From IMG/VR virus record IMGVR_UViG_2627853910_000001: 46,177 bases of DNA; one strand, written 5' to 3'. This document shows, in pieces, positions 20,628-44,660 of the stretch. The translations under genes and the position numbers were made by a program. Numbering within the stretch: position 1 is the first letter of the stretch; each line of letters starts with the position of its first letter. This DNA comes from a virus (Duplodnaviria > Heunggongvirae > Uroviricota > Caudoviricetes). The notes beneath the pieces are model-generated. The model was given only the letters and a program-made list of their open reading frames with translations, was not told the origin of the DNA and searched no databases.

Positions 20628-22034
20628 TCAACACGCCAGTTTTGCAGCTTTGACTTCTTTAAGGGGATCTAATTGGCCTTGTGATGGGCCATACCATTGA
20701 GCGCCACTCCATGCAGCGCGATATTCAGGCCCATAAAAAAAACCAGGGGCAATAACACGACCTTTAGCAACGGCTTCGGCCAACCATTCCTCATAGATCG
20801 GTTGGCAAAATGACTGAACCATCCAGTCACGTCGCATACGGAACATTTTCCAGGCTTCAAGTAATGCGGCCCTGCTTGCGCTATAACTTGCTGTAAAATG
20901 CTTTACCAAGAGTTCGTAAGGGAGTTCTAAAGCAGCCCCAATTTGACGGCATATGGCGACAACAAAACCATCAAATGCCGTATTTGGTCGCCCGGGATTT
21001 GCTGTATCTATCGACTCACCTTCACCCAAACTTACTATGGAGCCATTCCCCATTTCTTGGGTGTTATCATCATGGTTATCGATCTGCTCGTACTGAGGGA
21101 TACCCGATTCACCGACTGGTCCATCAGGAGCGTCTGTTTTAATAAAGACAGTAAACATCCCTGACACAACCGCAGCAACCAATTCAGCATCGGTGTATCG
21201 TCCTAACTGCTTCAATGCTTCAATAACAGGAGCAAGGACAGGAACGCCACGGCGTTGCCCAGGCCTTTCAAAATCCTGCATGACATGCAGAATATTTCTT
21301 CTTCCTGTTTTACTCCCATATGCGGGAATACGTTCCCACTTGCGGGTTACAAAACCAGAAGTCCCGGCTGGGTGATGTTTTGCAACCCAGTACGCCACAG
21401 GCTCGCTAAATTCACCAACCTCTACGCCACCGTAAAGATTTGGTATAAAACGATCCTCTGGATTGCAAACACGATCACCTTCAATTAAATAGACGCACAA
21501 ATCATATATAACACCCTTACGCTTAATAACTGGTAGCGCAGCAAATATATCGCCAGATGTTAACGCAGATATTTGGACCAATGATTGCAATTGTCCAAAA
21601 GTACACATTCTTGATGCATCACAATTTGGAGAATCAGCCCATAATCTAAACTCACGCTCAACATGCTTTTCCCATGCTCGCGCTTCTTCCTGCGTCATCC
21701 CCAAGAAATCGGCATCAATGTTCGCATTTAGTTTTAAACCGGAACCAACAACGTTTGTCCTGATAGTTTTTATTGCGCCAACCGATAGCGGGTTTCCCAT
21801 GAAGAGATCACGAGAACGCTCACGCAATTTATCTATATTTTTAACAATATCATCATCAGGAGAACCAGCTTTACTAAACCAACCCCTTAATGATTTTTTA
21901 TGAGTGCTTGCACCATGACGTGAATATCCAAGGTTATTAATACCTTCAAGTGCTTCTAACCGTTTTCTTGCCAAAGCTCGATTTAATGCCCTCTGAGGTG
22001 AAAACGGCGCAATAACTCGATCAAGAATATTCAT
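20628..22034 (-). CDS. Portal protein (lambda gpB-like)
   Basis: 468 aa between gpW-like and protease genes. Confidence 0.8.
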   Translation of the reverse strand: MNILDRVIAPFSPQRALNRALARKRLEALEGINNLGYSRHGASTHKKSLRGWFSKAGSPDDDIVKNIDKLRERSRDLFMGNPLSVGAIKTIRTNVVGSGLKLNANIDADFLGMTQEEARAWEKHVEREFRLWADSPNCDASRMCTFGQLQSLVQISALTSGDIFAALPVIKRKGVIYDLCVYLIEGDRVCNPEDRFIPNLYGGVEVGEFSEPVAYWVAKHHPAGTSGFVTRKWERIPAYGSKTGRRNILHVMQDFERPGQRRGVPVLAPVIEALKQLGRYTDAELVAAVVSGMFTVFIKTDAPDGPVGESGIPQYEQIDNHDDNTQEMGNGSIVSLGEGESIDTANPGRPNTAFDGFVVAICRQIGAALELPYELLVKHFTASYSASRAALLEAWKMFRMRRDWMVQSFCQPIYEEWLAEAVAKGRVIAPGFFYGPEYRAAWSGAQWYGPSQGQLDPLKEVKAAKLAC

Positions 22035-22281: not shown

Positions 22282-24138
22282 CTATATGGTTACGCCTTTA
22301 CTTATAACTCTACGGCGTCTTCTACGTATACCTGACGAGTTCTGCACATACACATTACCTCGCATTTCCTGTTCGGCAAGCCAGTTAAAATTAGGGTTCA
22401 GAATTTCCATCGCGGCAGTTGCATAGTTACGGCAATCAAGAGGCTCGTTACGCTCGTAGACTTTCACCCACTTTTCTTTTGTCTGCCCATTTTTATATTC
22501 AAATATTTTCTTCTCTGATAATAATCCTTTAAAGTATTCGGTATCATATCCTCTGTCAGAATCTAATGGGAAATGCATATAACCAGGACCAGGATCATGT
22601 AGTTTAATTCTTGCCATGATGGTCCCTTTACCATCATCAACCCCCAAATTAAACAACATAGCACCCACACGGTTATTATTACTTGGCTTTCCTATAAATG
22701 GTAAACCTACCCCACCACGCCCCCTGATAGAGTATATTCGCCTTGATTCTCTCGGCTTAGTAAAGCGATATACCTCTGTCGTAAAATGCCCACCAGAGTC
22801 AATACAAACGGAAGAAATCTGTAATTTTCGACCGTCACGGAATGACCAGCTACGGAGTAAGTATTCATCAAGTTGTTTCCAGACAACATCTTGTGCGGGA
22901 TCACCTGGGAATATTTTATATTCTATCCCCCATGACTCCTTACCTTTTCCCCAACCGACCAATTCACAAACTAAATACGTGTCCTGTACGTCAACACCAG
23001 CACTTAACAATAAAACATCATCTGGTAAAAACTCTTCAAACCTTATTCTGCGTTGCAACAAGTATTCAGGATCGATATCGTCTTTAGCATCCTCTTTCCA
23101 TGGCTCACCCAGCTTAAGGTTAATAAACTCCATTAATCCATTTTTATCGCGGTTTCTGGTTGCTTCCGTAAATTCTTCAACCAGCTCTGACAATGCAACC
23201 CACGGGGAGTAAAGACTGTTAATATGAAAACCAACAATACCTTTAACTCCAGTATGTTCAGCTATCCATACCCCCTTCGCCAACCAATCAACGTCTGGTT
23301 TACCAGATCCGCGCATAATCCCGCCGCACTCACAGCACTCATATCTGGCCGTTTCCGGTAACGCCTCACCTGAATCGCTCTTATCCCATCTGACTTGCGA
23401 CCATTTCATCACCTGCATGGTGCCACAACATGGGCAAGGAACATGGTAGTAACGCTGATCGGAGAGCTTAAACCACTTGTGGATTTTGCTCGTTTCCTCC
23501 AAAACAGGAGTAGAAACAAAAACTTTCTTACGATTATGAAAGTTGGTAGTACGCTGAATACCTAGTTTTAGTGGGTCGCCCTCCTGCGTCACACCGTAAC
23601 GATCAATCTCATCAGCTAACAGTATTCGAATTGGCCTGGATGCAAGACCTGCTGGGGAATTAGCACCAACAAGTGCTATATATCCACCAGCGTAATGCTT
23701 CATACGTATAGTCGTGCTGGACTTTTTGGCTGCACCGCGCCCCTCTTTCCCTTCATGCAGCTTGTGTTTCAAACCAGGGGAATATTTGAACGTCGGATCA
23801 ATACGCTCTTTTGAAAAAGCCTCAGCCGCCTCTACCGTTGGATAAATCATCAACTGAGGAGATGGCTCCTGATCTGCAAAGTAACCCATAACATTTAGCT
23901 GTAATTCGGATTTACCAATTTGCGAGCTACATTGCATCACTACTGTTTCTGTATCAGCGTCACCAATAACATCCATTGGTTCACGCAAATATGGCACTCG
24001 GCTTGTACGCCACGGCCCTGGCTCTGGAGACGTTCCCGGCGCTACATGACGATACTTATCAGCCCATTCGGAAACAGTTAGCCGTGATTTAGGGCGAAGC
24101 GCACGGAAAAAAGCGGTGCTCCATACTGTTTCGCCCAT
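22282..24138 (-). CDS. Terminase large subunit (lambda gpA-like)
   Basis: 618 aa; CPCCG motif region resembling gpA zinc-binding segment. Confidence 0.85.
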   Translation of the reverse strand: MGETVWSTAFFRALRPKSRLTVSEWADKYRHVAPGTSPEPGPWRTSRVPYLREPMDVIGDADTETVVMQCSSQIGKSELQLNVMGYFADQEPSPQLMIYPTVEAAEAFSKERIDPTFKYSPGLKHKLHEGKEGRGAAKKSSTTIRMKHYAGGYIALVGANSPAGLASRPIRILLADEIDRYGVTQEGDPLKLGIQRTTNFHNRKKVFVSTPVLEETSKIHKWFKLSDQRYYHVPCPCCGTMQVMKWSQVRWDKSDSGEALPETARYECCECGGIMRGSGKPDVDWLAKGVWIAEHTGVKGIVGFHINSLYSPWVALSELVEEFTEATRNRDKNGLMEFINLKLGEPWKEDAKDDIDPEYLLQRRIRFEEFLPDDVLLLSAGVDVQDTYLVCELVGWGKGKESWGIEYKIFPGDPAQDVVWKQLDEYLLRSWSFRDGRKLQISSVCIDSGGHFTTEVYRFTKPRESRRIYSIRGRGGVGLPFIGKPSNNNRVGAMLFNLGVDDGKGTIMARIKLHDPGPGYMHFPLDSDRGYDTEYFKGLLSEKKIFEYKNGQTKEKWVKVYERNEPLDCRNYATAAMEILNPNFNWLAEQEMRGNVYVQNSSGIRRRRRRVISKGVTI

Positions 24139-24143
24139 GAGGT

Positions 24144-24704
24144 TTATTCTTCCTGCTTAATAAATCGGGATTCCTGGAGCGCCTGAAGCGCAAAATTAAT
24201 CTCGTCTTCAATAATGCGTTCGATCTCCCTGGCTGTTTTGCCTTCACAACGGGGAGCAGCTCTTGGAGCAATACTAAATAAGCGGCTACGCAATTCATTA
24301 GCTGCCAGAAATGCATCATCCCTGACCGCATCTTTAGCGATGAGAGAGCCTTCCTTTTCTTCAAATTCAAGGCGTTTCAGCTTTGCCTGATAAATTTTTT
24401 CTGCGGTCTTAGCCTTGTTGAATTGCACCGCAACACCGGAAGTACCACCAGCTAATCCGGCATCATCAGCGGGTAACTCTGGTTGTTCCGAAGATATCCC
24501 ATGCCCTCTTTTTCCATTTTCAGCAGATACCTCACGACCAACCTGTCGGCTCGCTTCATAAGCCGCACTGGCTTTATCAAAATCCAGCTTGCCGCTTTTC
24601 AGCACTGGAATGCGACCGGAACGACAGAGCTTCGTAACCATTGCCGGAGAAATACCTTTCCGGCGGGCAAACTCTGACTTACTGACGATGGCCATTACTT
24701 GCAA
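24144..24704 (-). CDS. Terminase small subunit (Nu1-like, N-terminal HTH)
   Basis: 186 aa immediately upstream of terL; SKSEFARRKGISPAMVTKL HTH. Confidence 0.55.
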   Translation of the reverse strand: MQVMAIVSKSEFARRKGISPAMVTKLCRSGRIPVLKSGKLDFDKASAAYEASRQVGREVSAENGKRGHGISSEQPELPADDAGLAGGTSGVAVQFNKAKTAEKIYQAKLKRLEFEEKEGSLIAKDAVRDDAFLAANELRSRLFSIAPRAAPRCEGKTAREIERIIEDEINFALQALQESRFIKQEE

Positions 24705-25285
24705 CCATTAGCAAGATACTGAACAAATCCCTCATGCGTTTCATGCGCGTCGTGGTACTGACGATAAACATCCAGCAACAATGCAATTTCCATATCCGTC
24801 GCGGGAATACGTTCTTTATCAATAGCCAGGTACTTAATTTGAACAACAGGGGAAGAATTATCGTCTTCTTCCTGCGGCTGTTCATCGCTTAACATTTCGT
24901 CAAGCTCTGCATCATTAAACCCAAGCAGATCAATATCAAAATCATCATCCATTAACTCTTTGACTTCTTCGGCCAGAAGCTGCATATCCCAGCCAGCATT
25001 TAAGGCCAGCTTGTTATCTGCAATCCTGTACGCCTTCTTCTGTTTTTCAGAAAGGTTACTCAACCGAATCGCCGGAACTTTATCCATTTCCAGAATTTCG
25101 GCTGCTGCAAGCCGCCCATGCCCCGCAATCAGTTCATTCTTTTCATCGATCAGCACAGGATTAGTGAAACCGAACTCACGGATACTGTTCACCAACTGTT
25201 CAACTTGCTCATCTGAATGAGTCCGTGAATTTTTGGCATATCTGAGCAGCTTACCGACTGGTAAATATTCGATTTTTAGAGCCAT
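24695..25285 (-). CDS. ParB/Srx-fold (ParB-like nuclease domain) protein, copy 1
   Basis: GHGR motif in ParB N-terminal-like domain; overlaps terS start by 10 nt; paralogue of 27952-28575. Confidence 0.6.
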   Translation of the reverse strand: MALKIEYLPVGKLLRYAKNSRTHSDEQVEQLVNSIREFGFTNPVLIDEKNELIAGHGRLAAAEILEMDKVPAIRLSNLSEKQKKAYRIADNKLALNAGWDMQLLAEEVKELMDDDFDIDLLGFNDAELDEMLSDEQPQEEDDNSSPVVQIKYLAIDKERIPATDMEIALLLDVYRQYHDAHETHEGFVQYLANGCK

Positions 25286-25842
25286 TTTTTAACCGCCATA
25301 ACACAACAGGTTAAAGAAAACTGTTTAACTTATTGATACTAAAAGAGAAAAATGACGATCTTTTTACTCATAAAAAATCACACAAACCAGCATAATTATA
25401 TGATTTTATTAAGTTTTTATAAGTAAAAAGGATCTTGCGATAGTGTTTTGGTTAAAAGATTGGATGTATTTGCATGATTTATAACGATTTTTATCAGAAC
25501 AACATCACATTGGTTAAAGATCTGCGCGTATCTTGATGATCTAAAAGAAAATTTTCTACTTTCTTTTTACCAGCACAAATACAGCAAAAAATCACGTTTT
25601 CCCGATATTTTTCAATGAGATGAGTAAATTTCTTTTACCGCAACTTTTAACCTAACTTTTTTCACGTTTAGCTAGCCGAACATCGGGGTTCGAATGACCC
25701 GCATCCAACGCTTTTGGCCAGAAGGACCCAATTCTGCCGGACGATGAAACGATGCTCGTGCCCACCCACAGACAGCCAGAGAGCGACGCTACAGAACACA
25801 GTGAATACACCTTGCATAACAACACCATCAACCACACGATGA
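25286..25842. other. AT-rich 557-bp non-coding region upstream of packaging genes
   Basis: No ORF of 60 aa or more on the minus strand; short repeats (TGGTTAAAGAT) and a few GATC sites. Confidence 0.4.
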
Positions 25843-26562
25843 TTAACGAGAGAACGTCTTAGAAAGGATGTCATCAATAGCCTTTGTGACTTCATCAGCA
25901 AACGCATCCTCACCAGCACGTAGCGCCACGCCATGCCAATCAAGACGCTGCGAATAGTTAGGTTGCTGGATAAACGTAAGGATCAACGTAGGACGCCGCC
26001 CAACGCGCTGCCAGACGCCTGGTTGAAGCGGGTTACTTGTACCAGGTCGAACAACAAAAAACTCCGTAGGCTTGCCCTGACGGCGATTTTGATGCGCATC
26101 TCGCTGAACTCTTAGGCCAGATAAGACCTGCTGTAATTGCCCCCGCGAAATATTCCCGTATTTGTCCAGCTTTGCGCCGGGACCAGGAGCAAGCTGCCAG
26201 CCGTTAGGCAAATATCCACCAGCCCTTAGCGCCCCTTCTGAGCGTTTGTACTGTCGTTGGCCACCTTCGATTTGCGGAGTCAACGTTACAGGGGCTGGCG
26301 TTCCTCCCCATTCACGAGCATACACAATGGCTGTAGGATCACTCTTCTTTGCGGCCAAAACGTAAGTAGAGTTCTGAATCCACGGCGTGGGCCTGTCAAA
26401 TACCCGATTAATTTCATTCTTAATCGCAGCCTGAGAAGCCTTTGCCGTTCTGGTTGCCGCAAGCGCCATTGCGAACGGCAATTCGCGTTCTTCAAGGCGC
26501 TGGAGTTGTCGTTGAATATCCTGAGAAGAAAAATCCATCTTTATCTCAATTCTGTCAGCCAC
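25843..26562 (-). CDS. Hypothetical protein
   Basis: 239-aa ORF, no recognised motif. Confidence 0.35.
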   Translation of the reverse strand: MADRIEIKMDFSSQDIQRQLQRLEERELPFAMALAATRTAKASQAAIKNEINRVFDRPTPWIQNSTYVLAAKKSDPTAIVYAREWGGTPAPVTLTPQIEGGQRQYKRSEGALRAGGYLPNGWQLAPGPGAKLDKYGNISRGQLQQVLSGLRVQRDAHQNRRQGKPTEFFVVRPGTSNPLQPGVWQRVGRRPTLILTFIQQPNYSQRLDWHGVALRAGEDAFADEVTKAIDDILSKTFSR

Positions 26563-26578
26563 CAGCGCCTCCTACACA

Positions 26579-27958
26579 CTACTTAATCAACGGCCGGAAA
26601 GCCGCCAGCACATCATCAGATCGTCCGATTGTTGAACCACCAGGCAACGGCAACTCAAACTCAAAACGAACAGCTTTCTCCAGACTCGCCCAACTAAGGG
26701 AATCATCGTTAATGACGTGCAAATACCAGCTCTTACAGTTGAATATTGACCGCTTAATCCTGAAACCATGTACACGACACAACTGCTTCACTTCATCATC
26801 AGAGTGAAACTTCTGGTAAAACCAGTGCCCCTTCCGGTACAACGCGGTAAAACCGTTATGATCAATAAAATAAAGCCGGCTTTTGGAACTCGCCGCTTGT
26901 GTTTGCTTCAGGACTGTTTCCAGCTCTCCACGGCTACGACCAGAAAAGAATATTGACCCACCAGCTTTACACAGGCCTTTTAGAACCGTCAGAACGGACC
27001 ATTCAGCCTCGACACTATCGACCGAGTTCAAAACGCTATCGCAAATCACGTAGTCGTAACGCCCTCGCGTTTTTAAGTCGTCCACCAGCGTATCAATCAT
27101 CCGGTTTGTTGCGGCCCTATCCAAAGTGTTTCCAGCGCCCTTACGGCGGAAAAGCTCGAGATCATGCAGGTTATATCCCTTTGCCCTGAGCATTCGCGCG
27201 TAGTCTCCCTGCCCCGAGCCAAAATCAATTCCTCTTGGCGTCTTGGCAATGATCGGGAGGATCAACGACTCATACAGGTTTGATTTCAGGCTGCCACCAT
27301 TACGCAACCGCATAAGCTGCGCATACGTCTGGATGTATGTTGTTTTCTCCAGATGAGAATACTCAAATACACCATAAGTTTTATTCAGATAACTTTGGTA
27401 TTTTTCCTTCTCAACATCAGGGATCACAAACACCGTTAGCGGTGTGCGCGTCATCTTCGCTGCTAATGCATACTGAGCACAGTGAATAACCTCACCAGAC
27501 TGAGTCGCAACACAACCACCCCACGGACCATACTTGATAACCAGTTCCGCTATGTTCTTTCGAACATATGCCATTTTCGCGCGCATATTGCCTGAGATCT
27601 GGCTTGCCGATACCTGAACAAAACCATGCTTATCTTCCAGACCTGACACCCTGCAACGCTCATCTCCGCTATCAAAATCCGTTCCGTTATGCAGTTGGTT
27701 AAACCGTACTTCGTCGTATACCGTCGTTTCACAGGGCAACACATACACCGCAGCACTCGTTATTCCCAATTTACGTAGCGCCTTCGTCCTTTGGTGTCCC
27801 GCCACCAGCAAATCGCCGCGCACTATCAATGGCTTCACAAGCCCCAGCTCCCTGACGCTTTCCGCCAGCCTCGCAAGATCATCCTCACCGATAAAACGCG
27901 GGTTATATTCCGCGCCGCGTAGGTGCGTTATGTCGTAATTGAGGTGAAGCATCAGCAC
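26579..27958 (-). CDS. ParB-N-like domain fused to class I SAM-dependent methyltransferase
   Basis: N-terminal VAGHQR ParB-like motif; C-terminal IDFGSGQG and YDYVICDSVL motifs typical of SAM methyltransferases. Confidence 0.6.
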   Translation of the reverse strand: MLMLHLNYDITHLRGAEYNPRFIGEDDLARLAESVRELGLVKPLIVRGDLLVAGHQRTKALRKLGITSAAVYVLPCETTVYDEVRFNQLHNGTDFDSGDERCRVSGLEDKHGFVQVSASQISGNMRAKMAYVRKNIAELVIKYGPWGGCVATQSGEVIHCAQYALAAKMTRTPLTVFVIPDVEKEKYQSYLNKTYGVFEYSHLEKTTYIQTYAQLMRLRNGGSLKSNLYESLILPIIAKTPRGIDFGSGQGDYARMLRAKGYNLHDLELFRRKGAGNTLDRAATNRMIDTLVDDLKTRGRYDYVICDSVLNSVDSVEAEWSVLTVLKGLCKAGGSIFFSGRSRGELETVLKQTQAASSKSRLYFIDHNGFTALYRKGHWFYQKFHSDDEVKQLCRVHGFRIKRSIFNCKSWYLHVINDDSLSWASLEKAVRFEFELPLPGGSTIGRSDDVLAAFRPLIK

Positions 27959-28575
27959 ACCTCCCCAGCCAGCAATGCGGATACAAATCCGATATAGCTG
28001 CCATTATCATCAACATAACGAGACACCGCGCAGTCAAAACGATCCGCTTCCTCATCCGTTGCTGGGATTTTATGACCTCCAAATGACAGGTACTGAACTT
28101 TTACGCCTGATTTGGCCTCATCCTTCTCAAATGGGATATCCATACCCTCTGTGTCATCGTAGACTGCCGCACTCAATAAGTTATCCAGTTCGCGCTGAGT
28201 AAAACCAATTGAGTCCAGAGCAAAATCATCGGCCGCAAGATCTGCAAGCTCCGCGCTTAACAGCTCTTCATCCCAACCAGCATTCAGCGGAATACGGTTG
28301 TCGGCCAGACGATATGCCTTCTTCTGATTCTCCGTTAGCCCTTCCAGAACAATGCAGGGAACATCATCCATCCCCAACTGAGTGGCCGCAGCAATTCGAC
28401 CATGACCAGCAATTACAACGTTGTTCTCGTCTATCAGGATCGGATTAGTCCATCCGTACTCCTGTATGCTGGCAACAATCTGATCTACCTGCTCCACGGA
28501 GTGTGTGCGAGCGTTCTTTTCATAACCAATCAACACAGAAAGTGGTAAAGAAACCACATTAAGATGTTTTGTCAT
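27952..28575 (-). CDS. ParB/Srx-fold (ParB-like nuclease domain) protein, copy 2
   Basis: Paralogue of 24695-25285 (IAGHGR, NQKKAYRLADN, LNAGWD); overlaps downstream gene start. Confidence 0.6.
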   Translation of the reverse strand: MTKHLNVVSLPLSVLIGYEKNARTHSVEQVDQIVASIQEYGWTNPILIDENNVVIAGHGRIAAATQLGMDDVPCIVLEGLTENQKKAYRLADNRIPLNAGWDEELLSAELADLAADDFALDSIGFTQRELDNLLSAAVYDDTEGMDIPFEKDEAKSGVKVQYLSFGGHKIPATDEEADRFDCAVSRYVDDNGSYIGFVSALLAGEVC

Positions 28576-28810
28576 GCCGTTTATCCGCTAAAATCCCCTC
28601 GCTTGTGCAAGCAAGTGGGCCTCGGTTTGTATCCACGGCACCCTGTGGGTATGAATGACTGTCGTCAGGTCGCAACTGACGGCGGTCGCCCACCTTCCAG
28701 TAATAAAAAAGCAACCAGCATTAACTCTACAGCGAGCTGGAGTTAATGAGGCAGCTTTGGTTTGCGCATTATCGCAGCCCCTGGTAAGCACAAGAGCTGC
28801 TGTAATGCTA

Positions 28811-28840
28811 AAAAAACAAAACCACCCGCAGGTGGTTTTA
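28811..28840 (-). terminator. Terminator hairpin ACCACC-CGCA-GGTGGT with A-run/T-run flanks
   Basis: 6-bp GC-rich stem flanked by A6 and T4; follows the minus-strand gene ending at 28868. Confidence 0.5.
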
Positions 28841-28867
28841 TAAATAAATAGCAAACAGGTATCTGCA

Positions 28868-29275
28868 CTAATCAGATAAACCAAACTTCTTCTTTGCCAA
28901 TGACTTGAGAAGTTCTACACCAACATCCTTCATAACAGCCAATGGCTCATTGCTAATTTCTTTTAGTCTAGCGAAAACATCTTTGCTCTCTAGTGCACAG
29001 GCAAAATCCTGTCCCTCTGTAGTCAATCTAATATCTACATCAACAGTCCTCATTCCTGCAAAGGAATTAACATAGCCAAGACGCAGAGGATCACGCGTTT
29101 CCATCTTCATATTGCTGATAAAACCTTGCTCAATCAATTGCATATAATGAAACATGCCCTTTTCTGAGGCTATATCAAACCCCGCATCTCTTAGTTGATT
29201 TACTGTTATGAACGTGCTTTCTGAATCCAAAAACACAGTCAGCATCTTTTTTAGATAATCTAGATCGGTGCGCAT
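28868..29275 (-). CDS. Hypothetical protein
   Basis: Start set at internal ATG preceded by AAGGAGG RBS (29281-29287). Confidence 0.4.
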   Translation of the reverse strand: MRTDLDYLKKMLTVFLDSESTFITVNQLRDAGFDIASEKGMFHYMQLIEQGFISNMKMETRDPLRLGYVNSFAGMRTVDVDIRLTTEGQDFACALESKDVFARLKEISNEPLAVMKDVGVELLKSLAKKKFGLSD

Positions 29276-29721
29276 TTTACCCTCCTTAAATGGAACGCAA
29301 ATGTTACACAACCTTTAAAAAAGACACATTGTTTTATTTATGCCTCATTTTAATCGACCAATTACTGCCTAAATTTATCAATCAATAATTGCTACCGCTT
29401 ACGCCGAAAAGCTCTCTGCGCCACTAAGATGCGCCACAGGACACCAGCAATAACCACCAGCGAGATACAAAAACACACGGCCACAACCATCAGAAAAAAT
29501 GCCAAGACCATTCATGAAACTATCCATTTTTCAATGAATACCTCCAGTAATATCAAGAGATACGCCGTACCCAGCGCGGTTCCTACCGATATAGCTAAGA
29601 CAAACCTCAAAGATAACGAGGTATCTTTCGCTTTTCTCCCAGACGTAAGCGCCAGCCAGAAATACCAACAAATCTCTTATTGGAAGCGGAAACCAGAACA
29701 AATCACTCGGCAAGTCCACGG

Positions 29722-30177
29722 TTATATCCTTCCATTCATTTTTATCGGATGACCAGATAGCCTTACGCAGTTGAGCTGTAAAGCTCCGGTATCAACTAAC
29801 TGATCAACTAACATGATTAGAGCTTCATATTCAGACTGATAGCTAACCTGACGCATTCGACCGCCGTTGTTCTCCAGAATGTCGGCCACCTTTGCAGCCA
29901 ACTCGCTTAGACAGGAGAACTTATTCCCATATATCGTTTTATACTCGCGCTTCTGGCATTCTTCGGCTTGCGGCTGGTTATCGAGAGCTATCAGCGACCG
30001 ATGGCTATCAAGGAAGTCCACAATCTCATTCAGGCACTCTTTGGCTGCCTCATCGTGACTTTTTCCGTATGCTTCATGGAGGACTTTCATCCTCATCATT
30101 GCTCCGTCACACATAATCGAAAGCGCGTAAAGCACATCACTAATCGCCATTTCTTTTTTGGTGCTTGTCGAAGGCAT
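29722..30177 (-). CDS. Hypothetical protein
   Basis: 151-aa ORF in accessory cassette. Confidence 0.4.
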   Translation of the reverse strand: MPSTSTKKEMAISDVLYALSIMCDGAMMRMKVLHEAYGKSHDEAAKECLNEIVDFLDSHRSLIALDNQPQAEECQKREYKTIYGNKFSCLSELAAKVADILENNGGRMRQVSYQSEYEALIMLVDQLVDTGALQLNCVRLSGHPIKMNGRI

Positions 30178-30251
30178 CCCATGTTCTCCTTTGTCTGGAT
30201 GTAAAAAAGCCCCGGCAATTGCCGAGGCTCGTTGTTCGTTATCGTTACGGT

Positions 30252-30452
30252 TTAATGCTCGCGTCGTCCGGCGACAACTTCGGATTTGTATTTCAGGTCG
30301 CCCAGCAAGAATTGCAGCTTAAGCATCTTTGCCGCCGTGTAGTTCCCTGATTCCACAACCTCTTTCATGAGGTCATAAACGGCCGCTACATCATCAGCCA
30401 GGAACTCTTTGCGTTGCTGCTCAGTCGCACGTTTGAAGGAAATACGCATCAC
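30252..30452 (-). CDS. Hypothetical small protein
   Basis: 66-aa ORF overlapping upstream stop (coupled). Confidence 0.3.
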   Translation of the reverse strand: MMRISFKRATEQQRKEFLADDVAAVYDLMKEVVESGNYTAAKMLKLQFLLGDLKYKSEVVAGRREH

Positions 30453-30718
30453 TCATCATCTCCTGCCGCACATACAACCTCACAAAAAACATCAGCGGAA
30501 TGTTTCTCCTTGAACGAATGACGCTCAAAACCGCACTCAATATCAGGCGCAAAAACATCCACCACATACGGTCTTTCAGAATGTTCGTTTTCCCAACGAT
30601 AAACCGTAGTGACGTTGAAATGTTTTAACGCTTCACGGAACTCAACGCTGCCCGTCAGGTTTTTTGAGGTCAGGTATTGCAGGAGGTTTTTTACTACTTC
30701 ACGGTCTTGTACTTTCAT
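30449..30718 (-). CDS. Hypothetical protein, first gene after repeated promoter cassette copy A
   Basis: ATG immediately follows the repeat, which supplies GGAGA RBS. Confidence 0.45.
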   Translation of the reverse strand: MKVQDREVVKNLLQYLTSKNLTGSVEFREALKHFNVTTVYRWENEHSERPYVVDVFAPDIECGFERHSFKEKHSADVFCEVVCAAGDDE

Positions 30719-30835
30719 CGGGTTATCTCCGGTTTAACCAGGGCGGGTATCGCTCGGTTTCGGGTATAACCTTAGGAAATTTTTTCCCACCTGTAAAGCA
30801 CTTTTTATATAAATCTATAATTATATAATTCTATG
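30719..30835 (-). repeat. Repeated promoter/leader cassette, copy A (~117 bp)
   Basis: Near-identical (1 mismatch) to 44539-44655 and ~95% to 35440-35547; ends at the start codon of the downstream gene. Confidence 0.85.
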
Positions 30836-31418
30836 CCACTTGCCAGAGAGCATCATGCAACTGGATACCTCCATTGCACTGGTTGCCCCAGCCATGCCAG
30901 CCATCAGGTAAATCACCGCGAGCAAACAGCTCAATACGAGGAACATCACCTAACAGCTTTACCAGCTTGTCACGGACCACATCAGGCTTCCGAGAATGCT
31001 CCAGACGAGGCGATGTAAACGACTGAATGATCCCCGCATCAAGACGGGTCGGCAGTTTGCCTTTTACCGCAAACAAGCAATCTTCACTGTTTGCACGAGT
31101 CATATGCCCCATCCCCATCACCAGCTTATCTGGTTGTCGGCTACCACATTTGTTCCATGTGAAGCCCTTCATGGTCATCAGCCTGAATCCCCATGCTTTA
31201 ACCACCAGCAACGCTTCTTCTGGCTGAGTCGGAACCCACCACATGGCCAACAAACACGATTCAGGATTAGCAAGCTGCCAGACAGGAATACGAGCAATCT
31301 CCTCAGCTTTCATCGTTGGATACTTAAAACCAGCTCCACGATTCCCATCCTTACACTTGTCTTTGTATTCCCAGGGGGGATCTGCATAAATCAGATTAAA
31401 CAATGCAATTGCCTCCAT
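30831..31418 (-). CDS. MT-A70-family DNA N6-adenine methyltransferase
   Basis: DPPW catalytic motif (YADPPWEY) near N-terminus. Confidence 0.8.
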   Translation of the reverse strand: MEAIALFNLIYADPPWEYKDKCKDGNRGAGFKYPTMKAEEIARIPVWQLANPESCLLAMWWVPTQPEEALLVVKAWGFRLMTMKGFTWNKCGSRQPDKLVMGMGHMTRANSEDCLFAVKGKLPTRLDAGIIQSFTSPRLEHSRKPDVVRDKLVKLLGDVPRIELFARGDLPDGWHGWGNQCNGGIQLHDALWQVA

Positions 31419-31484
31419 GTTAATTGTGCCTCCGGCGCTTATCTCCGGCAGTCATAACGCTGGCCAGCTCTACAGCAAACACAA

Positions 31485-31517
31485 CGAAAAGGGCACTAAC
31501 CAGACTGATTAATGCCC
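31485..31517 (-). terminator. Terminator-like hairpin downstream of tRNA
   Basis: Stem GGGCATTAA/TTAGTGCCC followed by TTTT on minus strand. Confidence 0.4.
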
Positions 31518-31725
31518 TTGCCTGTTGTGTGCCGGATATCGCCCGACAACGCTGTTTTGGTAACACGGCTACAGTTCCGTGCCGCTCCAGCTTTTACCCC
31601 TTTGCGGATAACAGGCCCTGCCTGTAACTTAGCCCCACGTTCGCCCGAAATGCGCACCAGGCACGCATAAAGATGAGCACGAAGAAGTAACTCCACCGCG
31701 CTTATCTTTATGTGTGAGAGTGAAT

Positions 31726-31801
31726 TGGTGGCCCCTACCGGATTTGAACCGATGACCGTGCGATTATGAGTCGCCTGCTCTAACCACTGAGCTAAGGGGC
31801 C
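31726..31801 (-). tRNA. tRNA with CAU anticodon (Ile2/lysidine-type or Met)
   Basis: 76-nt cloverleaf GGCCCCTTAGCTCAGTGGTTAGAGCAGGCGACTCATAATCGCACGGTCATCGGTTCAAATCCGGTAGGGGCCACCA; acceptor and D-arm identical to E. coli ileX-type tRNA as recalled; encoded CCA. Confidence 0.85.
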
Positions 31802-31812
31802 ATATTTGATTT

Positions 31813-31894
31813 GTTTGTCTGGTGTGGAACCGCGCACGAAAATCCCAGCCAATAAATTCAGGATTTTTGGGCGCGGCGGCATATCAGACAAACA
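31813..31894 (-). other. Long imperfect hairpin between lysis genes and tRNA
   Basis: Arms 31830-31845 and 31861-31876 pair 14/16; outer arms TGTTTGTCTG/CAGACAAACA. Confidence 0.4.
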
Positions 31895-31970
31895 TGGTTG
31901 ATGCGTGCGCCCATGAGAAAAGCGCATAGAATGTTGTAACTATATATTTATATAATTATAGAAATATATA

Positions 31971-32180
31971 TTACTTTGGACAGTTGATTTCCCATGCCCT
32001 GTTATGAGCCAGAATATCTTTCTTTGTCTGTCGGTCCATAACATCGATGTCGTGATCAGTCAGGTAGATGGGCTTTACCCAATCACAGGCGGTATCAACC
32101 ACCACCGGGACGCTTCCACGACTCCCGCAGCTCGCGATCAACATCGTCATCAGCCATATGGTTAACACTCTGCTGTACAT
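31971..32180 (-). CDS. o-spanin (Rz1-like lipoprotein), overlapping 3-prime end of i-spanin
   Basis: Signal peptide with lipobox LIASC; overlaps the i-spanin gene. Confidence 0.55.
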   Translation of the reverse strand: MYSRVLTIWLMTMLIASCGSRGSVPVVVDTACDWVKPIYLTDHDIDVMDRQTKKDILAHNRAWEINCPK

Positions 32181-32373
32181 TCCCCACCTCTTTTGTCACT
32201 TCTATACGCCGCTCCGCAGTGGCTTTTACGGCGGCTGCATTCTCATTAATGCGCTGCTTTTCAGCTTCATCTTCGGCCTTTTCTCGCCCCTTCATACGAC
32301 CAAAACCAAACGCGCCAAATGCAACCAATATAATTGTGCCAATAAATGACAAAACGGCCTTCAAACCAGTCAT
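32095..32373 (-). CDS. i-spanin (Rz-like)
   Basis: N-terminal TM helix then charged coiled-coil; directly after endolysin. Confidence 0.6.
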   Translation of the reverse strand: MTGLKAVLSFIGTIILVAFGAFGFGRMKGREKAEDEAEKQRINENAAAVKATAERRIEVTKEVGNVQQSVNHMADDDVDRELRESWKRPGGG

Positions 32374-32912
32374 ACCACCACTCGCTCTTTCATCCAGCCG
32401 TAGACAAACGACTCATTAGCCTCGCGCTTCTCCGCCAACTCCAGATAGCGTTCGCCCTGCGTACAGTTCAGCGACGTCAGCATCACCCGTTCGCCGTCTT
32501 TTCCCCGATTCCCAAGATAAGCACGCAGCGCATTAATGGTACGTGGACCGATTCGTCCGTCTGCATCCAAATCGGGATACAGCTTCCCACGCAGGTTGAA
32601 CACATTCAGCCAGCGTTGAAGCATTTTTGACGCCACTGTTGGCCCCATGTTGACGCCCGTGTCGCACAGTTCTGCGGCAATATCCGGCGACAGAGTTGCT
32701 ATCTGGTCAAAACGTGGGCCGTACCAGTAATCAGCCTCAAGGATTTCCAGAGCCTGTTCGCGAGTTAAATCGCGCATATCGCCACGGTATCCATGAGCAC
32801 GGGCAGTGTTCTGAGTAATGCCCCACTTTGTTGGGCCTCCCTTGTCGTCAGGGTGATCCACATAGCCGCCCTCTTTTCCAAGAACACTGTTAAAAATCTC
32901 ATCTTTGGTCAT
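32370..32912 (-). CDS. Endolysin, glycoside hydrolase family 108-type with peptidoglycan-binding domain
   Basis: N-terminal EGGYVDHPDDKGGPTKWGIT motif typical of GH108. Confidence 0.8.
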   Translation of the reverse strand: MTKDEIFNSVLGKEGGYVDHPDDKGGPTKWGITQNTARAHGYRGDMRDLTREQALEILEADYWYGPRFDQIATLSPDIAAELCDTGVNMGPTVASKMLQRWLNVFNLRGKLYPDLDADGRIGPRTINALRAYLGNRGKDGERVMLTSLNCTQGERYLELAEKREANESFVYGWMKERVVV

Positions 32913-34371: not shown

Positions 34372-35439
34372 TCAGGCTTTCAATAGCGATTCTTTCAGAT
34401 ATCGGGCATCAGCCAGGGCGTTTGGAGTAATCTTGCGAACCCATGCATTACGGGTTGGACTCCACTTAAAGGCGCGTGATTTAAGCAGCGAACGAATGTT
34501 TGCCTCTGGTTTGCCAGGGAAATAAAACAGGATGCGGTTATCCTCTGGATCTATCTCCATAGAAAAGCCGTCGTATTCTTCGCGCTGTGCTCCTGTTACA
34601 GACTTGACCGATTCAAGCTCCTTAATACGGCTCTGTAGTCGTTTGATTTCGGCCTTATTGTTGCTCAGTGCGTATGAAGGGAATCCGATGTGCCCACAGA
34701 AATCTCCGGCCAGTAACTCTTTGGCTTCGCTTTCTGTAAACCTGAGATCGATTAATGCAGAAAGCTGCTGTAATTGGTCTTTTTTGTATTTGCGAATGGC
34801 CTTATTTGCGGCCTTCATTTTGACGTGTGACTTCATGCAGCCTTGCAGCTTACGAAGCAACTTAAATAGCGCATCAGGATCATCAGACGAAATTCCATTA
34901 CGACCAACACCTGCGGCTTTGCTCTCGTAGTGTGATGCTTTACTTTCGCATTCAACAAACGCTTTTCTGAATAACGCATCAGCTTTAGACAAACGGCGGC
35001 GATGGCCTTTCGCGCTATAATGGTCAACTAAAATCGGCTGGCCTAACGGGATCACATCCAACAGGTCATGCGCTCGCTTATGCGCTACCGCACCTTCTTT
35101 TCTGGCTTTTTCTGCACGAGCAATATATCGGGCAAGACGCGCGTTCTGGCGTTCCTGATAGGTGTTTACGTAATCATCTCCGCGCTGCTGCTGTTCAAGC
35201 CATGCTTTGCGCAGATCTTCTGTTACGTCCACCAGCTCCGCAGGGATACAACCAGTTTGGGCTTCATAAGAGTAACCATCCTCATAGATACGCCCATCGT
35301 CTTCAACAAAGAAAAAGGTTTCGTGCTCATCGCTTTTGACCATACGACCATTAACATGGCGTAATAGGTAGCCAGTATCAGTGCTTAACAGGCTGTTAGG
35401 GTTGTTGATCCAGTCAGAAATAATTACTTGTTTATTCAT
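34372..35439 (-). CDS. Conserved hypothetical protein (possibly DUF3560-type; recalled, unverified)
   Basis: 355-aa ORF starting right after repeat copy B; basic helical central region. Confidence 0.45.
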   Translation of the reverse strand: MNKQVIISDWINNPNSLLSTDTGYLLRHVNGRMVKSDEHETFFFVEDDGRIYEDGYSYEAQTGCIPAELVDVTEDLRKAWLEQQQRGDDYVNTYQERQNARLARYIARAEKARKEGAVAHKRAHDLLDVIPLGQPILVDHYSAKGHRRRLSKADALFRKAFVECESKASHYESKAAGVGRNGISSDDPDALFKLLRKLQGCMKSHVKMKAANKAIRKYKKDQLQQLSALIDLRFTESEAKELLAGDFCGHIGFPSYALSNNKAEIKRLQSRIKELESVKSVTGAQREEYDGFSMEIDPEDNRILFYFPGKPEANIRSLLKSRAFKWSPTRNAWVRKITPNALADARYLKESLLKA

Positions 35440-35547
35440 CAGATTTCTCCGGTTTAACCAGGGCGGGTATCGCTCGGTTTCGGGTATAACCTTAGGAAAT
35501 TTTTTCCCACCTGTAAAGCACTTTTTATATAAATCTATAATTATATA
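35440..35547 (-). repeat. Repeated promoter/leader cassette, copy B
   Basis: ~108 bp shared with copies A and C; lies between Q-like gene and next gene. Confidence 0.85.
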
Positions 35548-35608
35548 TTTATAGATTTTCGATGTTCCCGATGTCTACACACCATCAAAACAGCTCAAAA
35601 TGACACTT

Positions 35609-39407: not shown

Positions 39408-40061
39408 ATGACTATCTCTGTAGGTATTTTCAACGGAAAAGGCGGCGTAACCAAATCAACAATTGCCCGTGCTTTAGCAGTTGCTTATGCAAAGGCTGGC
39501 TGGAATGTATGCCTGATCGATATGGATGTGCTTAACGGAACGGTAACGCGTTGGGTACAACGCAGAATGGCCAACAATATCGAACCAGCAATCGCGGCGC
39601 AGCCGTGCGGCACACCATCACAAGTCCAGAAAATCATCGAATCAGAAGTATACGACCTGGTTATCGTTGATGGCGGTGCCTACGCATCTGAATCAGTACC
39701 GAAGCTATCTGAATTTCTGGATATGGTTATTTTGCCAACCCGATTCTCTACCGATGACCTGGAAACCACCGTTAACACTGCTCACGGCATCGTTAAAAAG
39801 GGTGTGCCAATCAAGAAAATTTGCATGGTGTTTTCCGGCGCGGCTGAAAATGAAGCTGACTATATTGAAGCCCAAGAGTACCTGGCTAATACGCCATACT
39901 TTGTTGTCGATAAGTACATTCCCCACAAGCCAGCTCTGAGCAAAGCTCAGGATAAGGGCTTAAGCCTCATTGAATGCTCATACGTTGCGCCACGCAAAAA
40001 GGCAGACGACGTTATTCAGGGGATTATCAACCAGCTTGAGGCTCTGACTACTGCCGCGTAA
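39408..40061 (+). CDS. parA: ParA-family partition ATPase
   Basis: Deviant Walker A GKGGVTKST; start set at ATG with GGAG RBS (track ORF begins 39393). Confidence 0.8.
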   Translation: MTISVGIFNGKGGVTKSTIARALAVAYAKAGWNVCLIDMDVLNGTVTRWVQRRMANNIEPAIAAQPCGTPSQVQKIIESEVYDLVIVDGGAYASESVPKLSEFLDMVILPTRFSTDDLETTVNTAHGIVKKGVPIKKICMVFSGAAENEADYIEAQEYLANTPYFVVDKYIPHKPALSKAQDKGLSLIECSYVAPRKKADDVIQGIINQLEALTTAA

Positions 40062-40104
40062 TATATAATTATAGTTTTATAGATTTATATAAGAGGGGAT
40101 ACAC

Positions 40105-40353
40105 ATGGCCGCACCATCAAAACCACCAAAGAAGAACAGCAAAGGCGTACCGCCATCGATCGAACAACCGCAGGTTTTCGACCCGACTGAAACGCCAACC
40201 AGAACCAAATCAGGTGGGGCACAAATGGCGTTTAACGTCGACCCTGAATTTAAACGCGAGTACAAAACGTTCGCCAGTTCAATGGATATGTCATTGAAAG
40301 AAGTGCTGACAAAATCTTTTGAGTTACTCAAGGCTCAATACAACCAGAAGTAA
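40105..40353 (+). CDS. Small partition partner, ParG/RHH-like centromere-binding protein candidate
   Basis: 82 aa directly after parA; disordered basic N-terminus then helical C-terminus; iteron TATAGATTTATATA immediately upstream. Confidence 0.5.
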   Translation: MAAPSKPPKKNSKGVPPSIEQPQVFDPTETPTRTKSGGAQMAFNVDPEFKREYKTFASSMDMSLKEVLTKSFELLKAQYNQK

Positions 40354-44157: not shown

Positions 44158-44538
44158 TTACTTAACGAGAAATAAAAATGGTTTATTGTTCGGAGGTGTA
44201 ATCGGGGCTGGCTCGCTTTTGCTCATGCGATCAGTGTACCAGGCCAGCTCCTTGTCAAAGTAAGCCTGATTAAAATAGGCCATGAATGTAGTTTCAAATC
44301 CATAACGACCGCTAATACGCAGCATCTGATTGCCGTTCTCTGTTTCCAGATATACCTGGGCACGTTCCTGATTCTCCTTCAGCCAGGTTAAAGCCTCGTC
44401 GCACGAGGACACACGATACTCATCATCGTAGCCGTCATCGATGCGGCTTGAAGAAGAACGGCAAATCACGCCAACAGAACCAGCCAGGATAGTTTGAATT
44501 TTAAGGAAAGCGTTTTTGCGGATTTTAATCATGCTCAT
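44158..44538 (-). CDS. Hypothetical protein, first gene after repeated promoter cassette copy C
   Basis: 126-aa ORF; ATG immediately follows the repeat. Confidence 0.45.
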   Translation of the reverse strand: MSMIKIRKNAFLKIQTILAGSVGVICRSSSSRIDDGYDDEYRVSSCDEALTWLKENQERAQVYLETENGNQMLRISGRYGFETTFMAYFNQAYFDKELAWYTDRMSKSEPAPITPPNNKPFLFLVK

Positions 44539-44655
44539 CGGGTTATCTCCGGTTTAACCAGGGCGGGTATCGCTCGGTTTCGGGTATAACCCTAGGAAAT
44601 TTTTTCCCACCTGTAAAGCACTTTTTATATAAATCTATAATTATATAATTCTATG
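44539..44655 (-). repeat. Repeated promoter/leader cassette, copy C
   Basis: 116/117 identical to copy A. Confidence 0.85.
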
Positions 44656-44660
44656 AGCAC

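Follow-up and report, generated by a model that had tools for sequence, protein, structure and literature searches.

The Caudoviricetes record IMGVR_UViG_2627853910_000001 of IMG/VR (46,177 nucleotides; this whole stretch is referred to as the window) encodes, ahead of its terminase genes, a conserved two-gene cassette consisting of a small ParB-fold protein (ParB2) and a fusion of a ParB_N-like domain with a class I S-adenosylmethionine (SAM) methyltransferase (hereafter the fusion). We favour, with about as much doubt as confidence, a role of this cassette in the modification of phage DNA before or at packaging. A sequence-only reading of the window had placed both genes in one contiguous cluster of four, together with a second ParB copy (ParB1) and a 239-aa protein (p239). 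The cluster is instead a composite arranged around the probable cos site of a phage-plasmid with a lambda-type (GpA) terminase, and is made up of the two-gene cassette, the extra ParB copy and the independent p239.

Conservation of the cassette across phages

Linkage was counted over 74 IMG/VR loci with a full-length fusion (denominators of 62 for the upstream ParB gene and of 56 for the large terminase subunit, TerL). A ParB gene of the phrog_620 type is located immediately upstream of the fusion in 59 of the 62 viral loci, and TerL follows downstream on the same strand, at a median distance of 1.1 kb, in 49/56 loci; these terminases belong to GpA, Terminase_6C and other families. The corresponding distances to TerL in the window are 2.4 kb for the fusion and 557 nt for ParB1, both genes being located upstream of it. 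The cassette has the same orientation as the lysis and structural genes and lies downstream of the former.

We have identified 715 clusters homologous to the fusion. Among the 120 homologues listed, conservation extends from end to end with at least 45% identity, and both ParB_N and Methyltransf_23 were called in most of them. The hosts and sources include Enterobacteria, Bradyrhizobium, Xanthobacteraceae, Bacteroides phages and metagenomes. Bacteroides phage BS-TP3 presents the most compact arrangement, ParB-fusion-TerS-TerL with nothing intervening (TerS, small terminase subunit), and the same order occurs in Serratia prophages and in metagenomic phages. The conserved core is the two-gene cassette of ParB and fusion.

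In comparison with a relative whose proteins are 79-90% identical, the rate of non-synonymous substitutions (dN) is low for all five genes compared, and its ratio to the synonymous rate (dN/dS) amounts to 0.03-0.07 for the four gene pairs with unsaturated dS; for ParB1, where dS is saturated, the ratio was not computable. The genes are therefore real and, where this is measurable, under strong purifying selection.

Another observation is an orphan, Cys/His-rich family of ~150 aa, fam3, whose gene overlaps the stop codon of the fusion in 37 of the 74 loci (L024:1610-2041, L039:2240-2668, L045:7398-7865, L008:2210-2644, L006:9419-9883 and 32 more) and which is absent from the window. Its invariant residues are H31-C32, C67-G68-V69, N78, H80 and C130-R131-N132, and no match was found in Pfam, PHROG, NCBIfam or PDB. 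The family may represent a third component of the cassette. In a Bradyrhizobium prophage (L006:10879-17196), ParB, fusion and fam3 stand beside divergent Amidoligase_2, GGACT/AIG2-like and N6_Mtase-like genes, before Terminase_3, which points to a more extensive neighbourhood of modification genes in some relatives.

Domain architecture of ParB2 and the fusion

All four minus-strand open reading frames (ORFs) recognised in the sequence-only reading were recovered in place (Table 1). ParB1 and ParB2 are indeed paralogues, 48% identical over their full length (E=1e-61), and both possess the GHGR motif. The Pfam ParB_N model scored 33.7 bits with ParB1, above its cut-off of 26.3, and just below it with ParB2 (24.8) and the fusion (24.4); PDB entries for ParB, Noc and Spo0J matched the ParB N-domain with E=1e-4 to 1e-3. 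In ParB2, an acidic linker joins an N-terminal domain of the nucleotide-binding type to a small C-terminal domain. No helix-turn-helix (HTH) family was detected by Pfam in either ParB1 or ParB2.

Residues 1-150 of both proteins correspond to a module that is usually fused to N6/N4 DNA methyltransferases. They matched phrog_498, which comprises such ParB-fused enzymes, with E=4e-52 to ~1e-51, and the ParB-fused MTase_II module PDLC03229 (positions 7-158) with E=2e-40 for ParB1 and E=6e-38 for ParB2 (residues 11-151); the ParB module of MTase_II was also the sole match to the PADLOC defence models. In 402 phage records, the module was found mostly inside DNA methylases or as a stand-alone protein, often as the first gene by the genome end.

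The stop codon of ParB2 overlaps the start of the fusion (TGATG, with a coding overlap of one base). The fusion comprises a ParB_N domain of the nucleoside triphosphate (NTP)-binding type (residues ~1-100), a conserved middle part (~105-205) and the class I SAM methyltransferase (~230-459), with Pfam placing ParB_N at residues 9-71 and Methyltransf_23 at 234-400 (E=7.6e-8). It carries the motifs GHQR and DFGSGQG, and its homologues share invariant YNPR and AGHQR (NTP-pocket motifs) and DFGxG (SAM motif). A motif scan found (D/N/S)PP(Y/F/W) in none of the four proteins and neither PCQ nor ENV in the fusion, and there was no match to PF01555 in the proteins scanned with Pfam. Both approaches thus agree with the original description of the 459-aa protein as a ParB_N-like domain joined to a class I SAM methyltransferase devoid of DPPY/DPPW or C5 motifs. 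No HNH family was found in ParB1, ParB2, the fusion or p239 with Pfam, PHROG and NCBIfam, and no TET/JBP-family dioxygenase was found in the proteins scanned or is annotated on a plasmid ~99% identical to the window.

The AlphaFold2 (AF2) model of the fusion has a predicted local distance difference test score (pLDDT) of 94 and a predicted template modelling score (pTM) of 0.90. In this model the middle part, residues ~105-205, shows the same beta-alpha-beta-beta-alpha-beta-alpha order as the ParB domain. It might be a second, degenerate ParB-like repeat, but homology found no support at the sequence level (hhalign of domain 1 against domain 2, E=0.15, not significant; no Pfam match).

The fusion is a full-length member of phrog_5475. 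Outside this family, the best PHROG for its N-domain is phrog_620, the family of the partner ParBs (E=1.5e-14), and the domain belongs to the same subfamily as ParB2. The closest folds to the methyltransferase domain are those of generic class I small-molecule and tRNA enzymes, with Trm9, METTL6, GNMT and toxoflavin methyltransferase among them. A search of 1.84 billion representatives with this domain by itself retrieved only 391 proteins, nearly all of ~460 aa and with the domain in the same position; it is a dedicated clade found essentially in the ParB-fused architecture only. In Pfam terms, the cassette is a PF02195 plus PF13489 polypeptide in a phage context, accompanied by a free ParB partner.

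The phage-plasmid and its probable cos site

The window represents a whole circular element, a ~46 kb E. coli phage-plasmid, as seen from its alignment with the plasmid of E. coli ATCC 25922 (48.5 kb, about 99% identity). Positions 24100-28900 are 99% identical to plasmids in 67 complete E. coli genomes, ATCC 25922 among them, and also match Escherichia phage vB_EcoM-613R2 and Yersinia phages vB_YpM_39, 41 and 44; relatives of the element are infectious phages isolated on Yersinia pestis EV76. Of the 74 matching complete E. coli genomes, 72 carry the cluster region with an identity of 95% or more, and 80 of its 83 placements are on plasmids. The element encodes a RepA replicon, ParA with a small ORF, a repressor region, lysis genes, an MT-A70 methyltransferase, a tRNA, a lambda-type GpA terminase, head genes and a P2-like contractile tail. 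The presence of the replicon and ParA together with this phage gene set on one circular element identifies it as a phage-plasmid.

The four genes do not form one contiguous cluster. They are divided by a 557-bp non-coding gap between p239 and ParB1 (25286-25842), within which the three Yersinia phage records start and end. Those of vB_YpM_39 and 41 break at window position 25699/25700 and that of vB_YpM_44 at 25687/25688, an offset of exactly 12 nt, which is the pattern expected if a 12-nt cohesive end were assigned to either terminus. Among relatives with flanking proteins 57-70% identical, GGGTCATTCGAACCCCG is the most conserved block of the gap. The record ends point to a probable cosN at this place (Table 1). 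Such a position would give a virion DNA molecule whose left end carries ParB1, TerS and TerL and whose right end carries ParB2, the fusion and p239. The suggestion that the cluster heads the packaging operon accordingly holds for ParB1, the stop codon of which does overlap the TerS start (TAATG), and fails for the three genes upstream of cos.

Between the putative cosN and ParB1, five of the window's 13 copies of TTTAACC are packed into 365 nt. The repeat unit co-varies between relatives: in one of them (L019), 9 of the 10 copies of TTGTTAACC are located in the equivalent stretch, versus 0.12 expected. The array looks like one of the cosB type.

Table 1 Coordinates of the cassette, the cos region and other features of the window
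Feature	Position	Strand	Characteristics
TerL, lambda gpA type	22282-24138	minus	GpA_ATPase E=7e-76; GpA_nuclease E=1e-84
TerS (small terminase)	24144-24704	minus	phrog_57 E=7.4e-42; N-terminal HTH-like region
ParB1	24695-25285	minus	196 aa; first gene after cos; phrog_620 E=4.6e-75
cosB-like array (putative)	25288-25652		five TTTAACC heptamers, AT-rich, between cosN and ParB1
cosN (probable)	25688-25699		12-nt cohesive end, GGTCATTCGAAC on minus strand; from phage record ends
p239	25843-26562	minus	239 aa; last gene before cos
Fusion	26579-27958	minus	459 aa with GTG start; 457 aa with the RefSeq start, ATG at 27952
ParB2	27952-28575	minus	207 aa; ORF; phrog_620 E=2.9e-74
Leader	28576-28815		~240 nt, GC-rich, before ParB2
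Terminator-like hairpin	28816-28841	minus	11-bp stem and T-run, just after DUF2513 gene, upstream of ParB2
MT-A70 methyltransferase	30831-31418	minus	canonical adenine methyltransferase with DPPW
tRNA	31729-31801	minus
ParA	39408-40058	plus	217 aa
ParA and downstream ORF	39408-40353	plus	82-aa ORF follows ParA
Portal	20628-22034	minus	468 aa; frameshift at ~20637
Recombinase	1801-2352
Tail-fibre and fibre-assembly segment	2423-4527		inverted versus ATCC 25922 plasmid
Near-identical ~120-bp element, three copies	30715-30835; 35435-35552; 44535-44660		each includes GGTTTAACC

ParB1 and p239

The paralogues had been described as bracketing the fusion. This layout is no functional architecture: it is lineage-specific, is split by the probable cos site and includes in p239 a member of an independent, GpA-linked family. 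A second ParB gene downstream of the fusion was seen in six loci, five of them in the window's own lineage. The similarity of ParB1 to the fusion-partner ParBs of other phages is 44-49%, as close as to ParB2; therefore, the gene either arose by an old duplication or came from another phage. Only ~99% identical proteins were found among the 120 homologues of ParB1 listed. The protein might serve as a second adaptor for the same enzyme or might tether the enzyme to the cos/terminase complex.

No Pfam or NCBIfam match was obtained for p239, which falls into phrog_1924, labelled 'minor tail protein'. Its AF2 model has a pLDDT of 86, and the best match in a fold search of the PDB had E=0.4, with a non-significant match of 73 residues to the SaPI1 tail-completion protein. 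The family counts at least 564 stretches in IMG/VR (loci examined, L091-L171). In 53 of 59 loci its members are located directly upstream of TerS and a GpA TerL, the latter at a median of 712 nt downstream. We have rejected the tail assignment, as there is no fold match and the location upstream of cos/TerS speaks against a gene of the tail module. Neither is p239 a third component of the cassette: outside the window's lineage its homologues co-occur with the fusion in 0 of 78 loci and with any ParB in one locus, and p239 is found beside the cassette in that lineage only. Gene neighbourhoods point to p239 as an independent conserved cos-proximal gene of GpA-type packaging regions, and it may act as a packaging or late-regulation factor.

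Possible role of the cassette

In the reading that we favour, at the even balance of belief and doubt given above, ParB2 and the fusion form a late-expressed cassette similar to those of ParB-terminase large subunit (ParB-Tls) loci and modify phage DNA before or at packaging. The cassette would be expressed together with the late genes. ParB2 would activate the fusion or serve as its DNA adaptor, probably engaging the homologous ParB N-domain of the latter in an NTP-dependent manner, and the methyltransferase would mark replicated phage DNA shortly before or during packaging by the terminase. Such a mark could protect or label the injected genome. We infer here the DNA substrate, the interaction between ParB2 and the fusion, and the timing. 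A link to DNA is suggested by the module shared by ParB1 and ParB2, which is normally fused to N6/N4 DNA methyltransferases. The packaging or DNA-modification/anti-restriction role suggested in the sequence-only reading also gains from the comparative evidence, ParB and fusion being linked to several TerL families.

Several points weigh against this reading. The fusion lacks DPPY-type and C5 motifs, and neither motif nor structure supports DNA as the substrate of the methyltransferase. The phage already encodes a standard DNA methyltransferase, the MT-A70 enzyme. About half of the related loci have a conserved third gene, fam3, which the window does not have. Accessory genes in general accumulate in the slot between lysis and terminase genes, and a location there is by itself no proof of a link to packaging. 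Finally, in a nanopore methylome of uninduced ATCC 25922, known enzymes accounted for every called motif (PMC12679398), so that a mark placed by the cassette would be restricted to the lytic cycle or lie outside the called N6-methyladenine (6mA), N4-methylcytosine (4mC) and 5-methylcytosine (5mC). The methylome fits late-only expression or a non-canonical mark and adds no positive support.

A more specific proposal, which we advance tentatively and hold to be rather improbable, is that ParB2 and the fusion, with fam3 in many phages, constitute an NTP-gated machine that installs on phage DNA at packaging a non-canonical mark other than 6mA, 4mC or 5mC, for example at another base position, on the backbone or on a pre-modified base. 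If true, E. coli ATCC 25922, a standard laboratory strain, would harbour epigenetic or anti-defence phage chemistry of a new class.

We consider it unlikely that the methyl acceptor is not DNA but a small molecule, a nucleotide, a tRNA or other RNA, or a protein. In that case, the ParB/Srx domains would be ATP-/NTP-binding or kinase-like modules, as in SerK and sulfiredoxin, the cassette would function in host takeover or anti-defence, and its place near the terminase would merely reflect a shared hot spot. Since the methyltransferase fold is generic and the motifs of DNA methyltransferases are missing, this explanation retains some weight. The best structural neighbours (Trm9, METTL6, GNMT and toxoflavin methyltransferase among them) act on small molecules and tRNA, the Pfam assignment is Methyltransf_23, and no unassigned DNA methylation motif was reported for the ATCC 25922 lysogen (PMC12679398). 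Moreover, ParB-fold kinases exist, and bacterial ParB-SAM-methyltransferase fusions bind ATP (PMC12704722). However, such structural likeness is common to class I methyltransferases and uninformative on the substrate, and the partner ParB subfamily is otherwise fused to DNA methyltransferases. The place right before TerS/TerL, kept from Proteobacteria to Bacteroidota, is also conserved more tightly than would be expected of a generic accessory gene.

Quite unlikely, in our estimate, is a direct role in packaging, in which the ParB-like proteins would be nickases or cos/pac-recognition helpers of the terminase, in the way of the HNH protein gp74 for that of HK97, with ParB1 bound to the TTTAACC array and the methyltransferase domain purely regulatory. 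The immediate surroundings of ParB1 argue for it: it follows cos directly as the first gene, it shares its stop with the start of TerS in an overlap, and the dense repeat array between cosN and ParB1 co-varies in a relative. ParB-like genes are often the first beside the terminase in unrelated phages as well, and the ParB-methylase Bce_0392 of Bacillus cereus is reported to have nicking activity (PMC5512222). On the other hand, the cassette accompanies at least three unrelated terminase families, with both cos and headful packaging, so that a helper specific to one terminase mechanism is unlikely; in most relatives packaging proceeds with no second ParB encoded between cos and TerS; a DNA-binding HTH is not recognisable in ParB1 and ParB2; and TerS, with weak AbiEi_4 and Cox-like HTH matches, could read the repeats with its own HTH-like N-terminus. 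Besides, an invariant SAM-binding motif and a catalytic domain of 250 aa would be left unexplained.

That ParB1 and ParB2 are centromere-binding partition proteins of a plasmid prophage is highly improbable: the element is kept as a plasmid (80 of 83 placements) and some records name the proteins 'chromosome (plasmid) partitioning protein ParB', but ParA lies 11 kb off on the opposite strand with its own 82-aa downstream ORF, TIGR00180 scored 31-40 bits against a cut-off of 58.45 with only the N-domain covered, there is no HTH, and the cassette also occurs without ParA beside the terminase in integrated prophages and lytic-type phages. We have thus rejected this identity. Neither a strong match to a characterised DNA methyltransferase nor a plasmid ParB with ParA nearby, which would have refuted the sequence-only reading, was found at the locus.

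If the cassette modifies DNA, as in the reading that we favour, a methyltransferase clade without canonical motifs would join the repertoire of phage DNA modification, and the finding that phage ParB proteins activate DNA-modifying enzymes would be extended. The cassette is widespread, evolves under strong purifying selection and is almost always located right before the terminase genes. Should its function prove to be that of an ordinary accessory gene, the view of the locus would still be corrected, with the cluster split by cos, p239 assigned to the GpA region and the partition genes found elsewhere. The question is tractable, because the element resides on a 48-kb phage-plasmid of ATCC 25922 and its relatives are infectious on Y. 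pestis EV76.

Other features of the element

Upstream of ParB2, the terminator-like hairpin is followed by the GC-rich leader, which has a folding z-score of -3.25 versus shuffled sequence. As far as the sequence goes, both elements may control the expression of ParB2 and the fusion. An Rfam search over 24000-32500 detected the tRNA only, and a scan for Sigma-70 promoters was uninformative, with fewer matches than in shuffled sequence. The MT-A70 gene and the tRNA sit between the lysis genes and the ParB cassette.

ParA is small, the 82-aa ORF that follows it has no Pfam match, and it is probably this type Ib-like pair that serves in the partition of the plasmid prophage. The portal gene has one extra G in comparison with the ATCC 25922 plasmid, which shifts the frame and leaves an ORF of 468 aa versus 524 aa; the extra base is due either to an error of sequencing or to a mutation that inactivates the gene in the window's copy. 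In comparison with the same plasmid, the segment for tail fibre and fibre assembly is turned around between collinear flanks, and it adjoins the recombinase gene; this fits a Gin/Cin-type invertible host-range segment beside its serine recombinase. Each of the three ~120-bp near-identical copies (promoter-like, leader and ribosome-binding site) runs up to the start codon of a minus-strand gene, and they look like a shared regulatory cassette of three transcription units.

Comparison with known systems

The closest precedent is found in the ParB-Tls loci, for which phage DNA modification as part of packaging was predicted (Iyer, Zhang, Burroughs and Aravind 2013, as related in PMC4738411). As there, a ParB-fold gene and a putative modifying enzyme are tied to the terminase. 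The loci are described in that account with canonical N6A/C5 methyltransferases, TET/JBP dioxygenases or glycosyltransferases, whereas the enzyme studied here belongs to a separate, motif-less class I clade, is itself fused to ParB and is paired with a free ParB.

A functional parallel was provided by O'Toole et al. 2026, who found that the activity of a thymine dioxygenase on double-stranded DNA requires its cognate phage ParB, a small protein devoid of a DNA-binding domain, with terminases present in 19% of ParB-dioxygenase contexts (PMC13229309). In this pair, 5mYOX176/ParB176, the small ParB likewise consists of a nucleotide-binding and a C-terminal domain joined by a linker, lacks a DNA-binding domain and stands beside its enzyme, with terminases nearby. 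The enzyme there is an iron/2-oxoglutarate (Fe/2OG) dioxygenase without a ParB domain of its own; in the window it is a predicted methyltransferase.

The architecture of the fusion itself has been surveyed. Kaljevic et al. 2025 reported that fusions of the ParB-CTPase fold with Methyltransf_23 (PF13489) and N6_N4_Mtase are enriched in phages and prophages, "perhaps in anti-defense" (PMC12704722). Pfam architecture and phage or prophage setting are the same as here; that survey gives no function, partner gene or genomic position, and its ATP binders are bacterial. In the ParB-fused N6/N4 methyltransferases (phrog_498, PDLC03229, B. cereus Bce_0392), the N-terminal module is homologous to residues 1-150 of ParB1 and ParB2. 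Unlike these enzymes, ParB1 and ParB2 are without PF01555, and the catalytic domain of the fusion is unrelated to PF01555 and has no (D/N/S)PP(Y/F/W).

With canonical ParABS the proteins share the ParB N-terminal fold and the conserved arginine of Box II, where GHGR or GHQR replaces GERR, but they have no HTH and no adjacent ParA and stay below the TIGR00180 cut-off, and the plasmid has a separate ParA and 82-aa ORF. HK97 gp74, an HNH endonuclease, is a cos-proximal cofactor of the terminase. It resembles the present case as an accessory gene beside cos and terminase; the four proteins described here have no HNH motif and another fold.

The sequence-only reading had not recognised the combination as a described system. 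ParB-terminase loci (PMC4738411) and the ParB-Methyltransf_23 fusion (PMC12704722) have, however, both been described, and the core of the locus is a variant within the known ParB-terminase and ParB-methyltransferase theme rather than a new kind of system.

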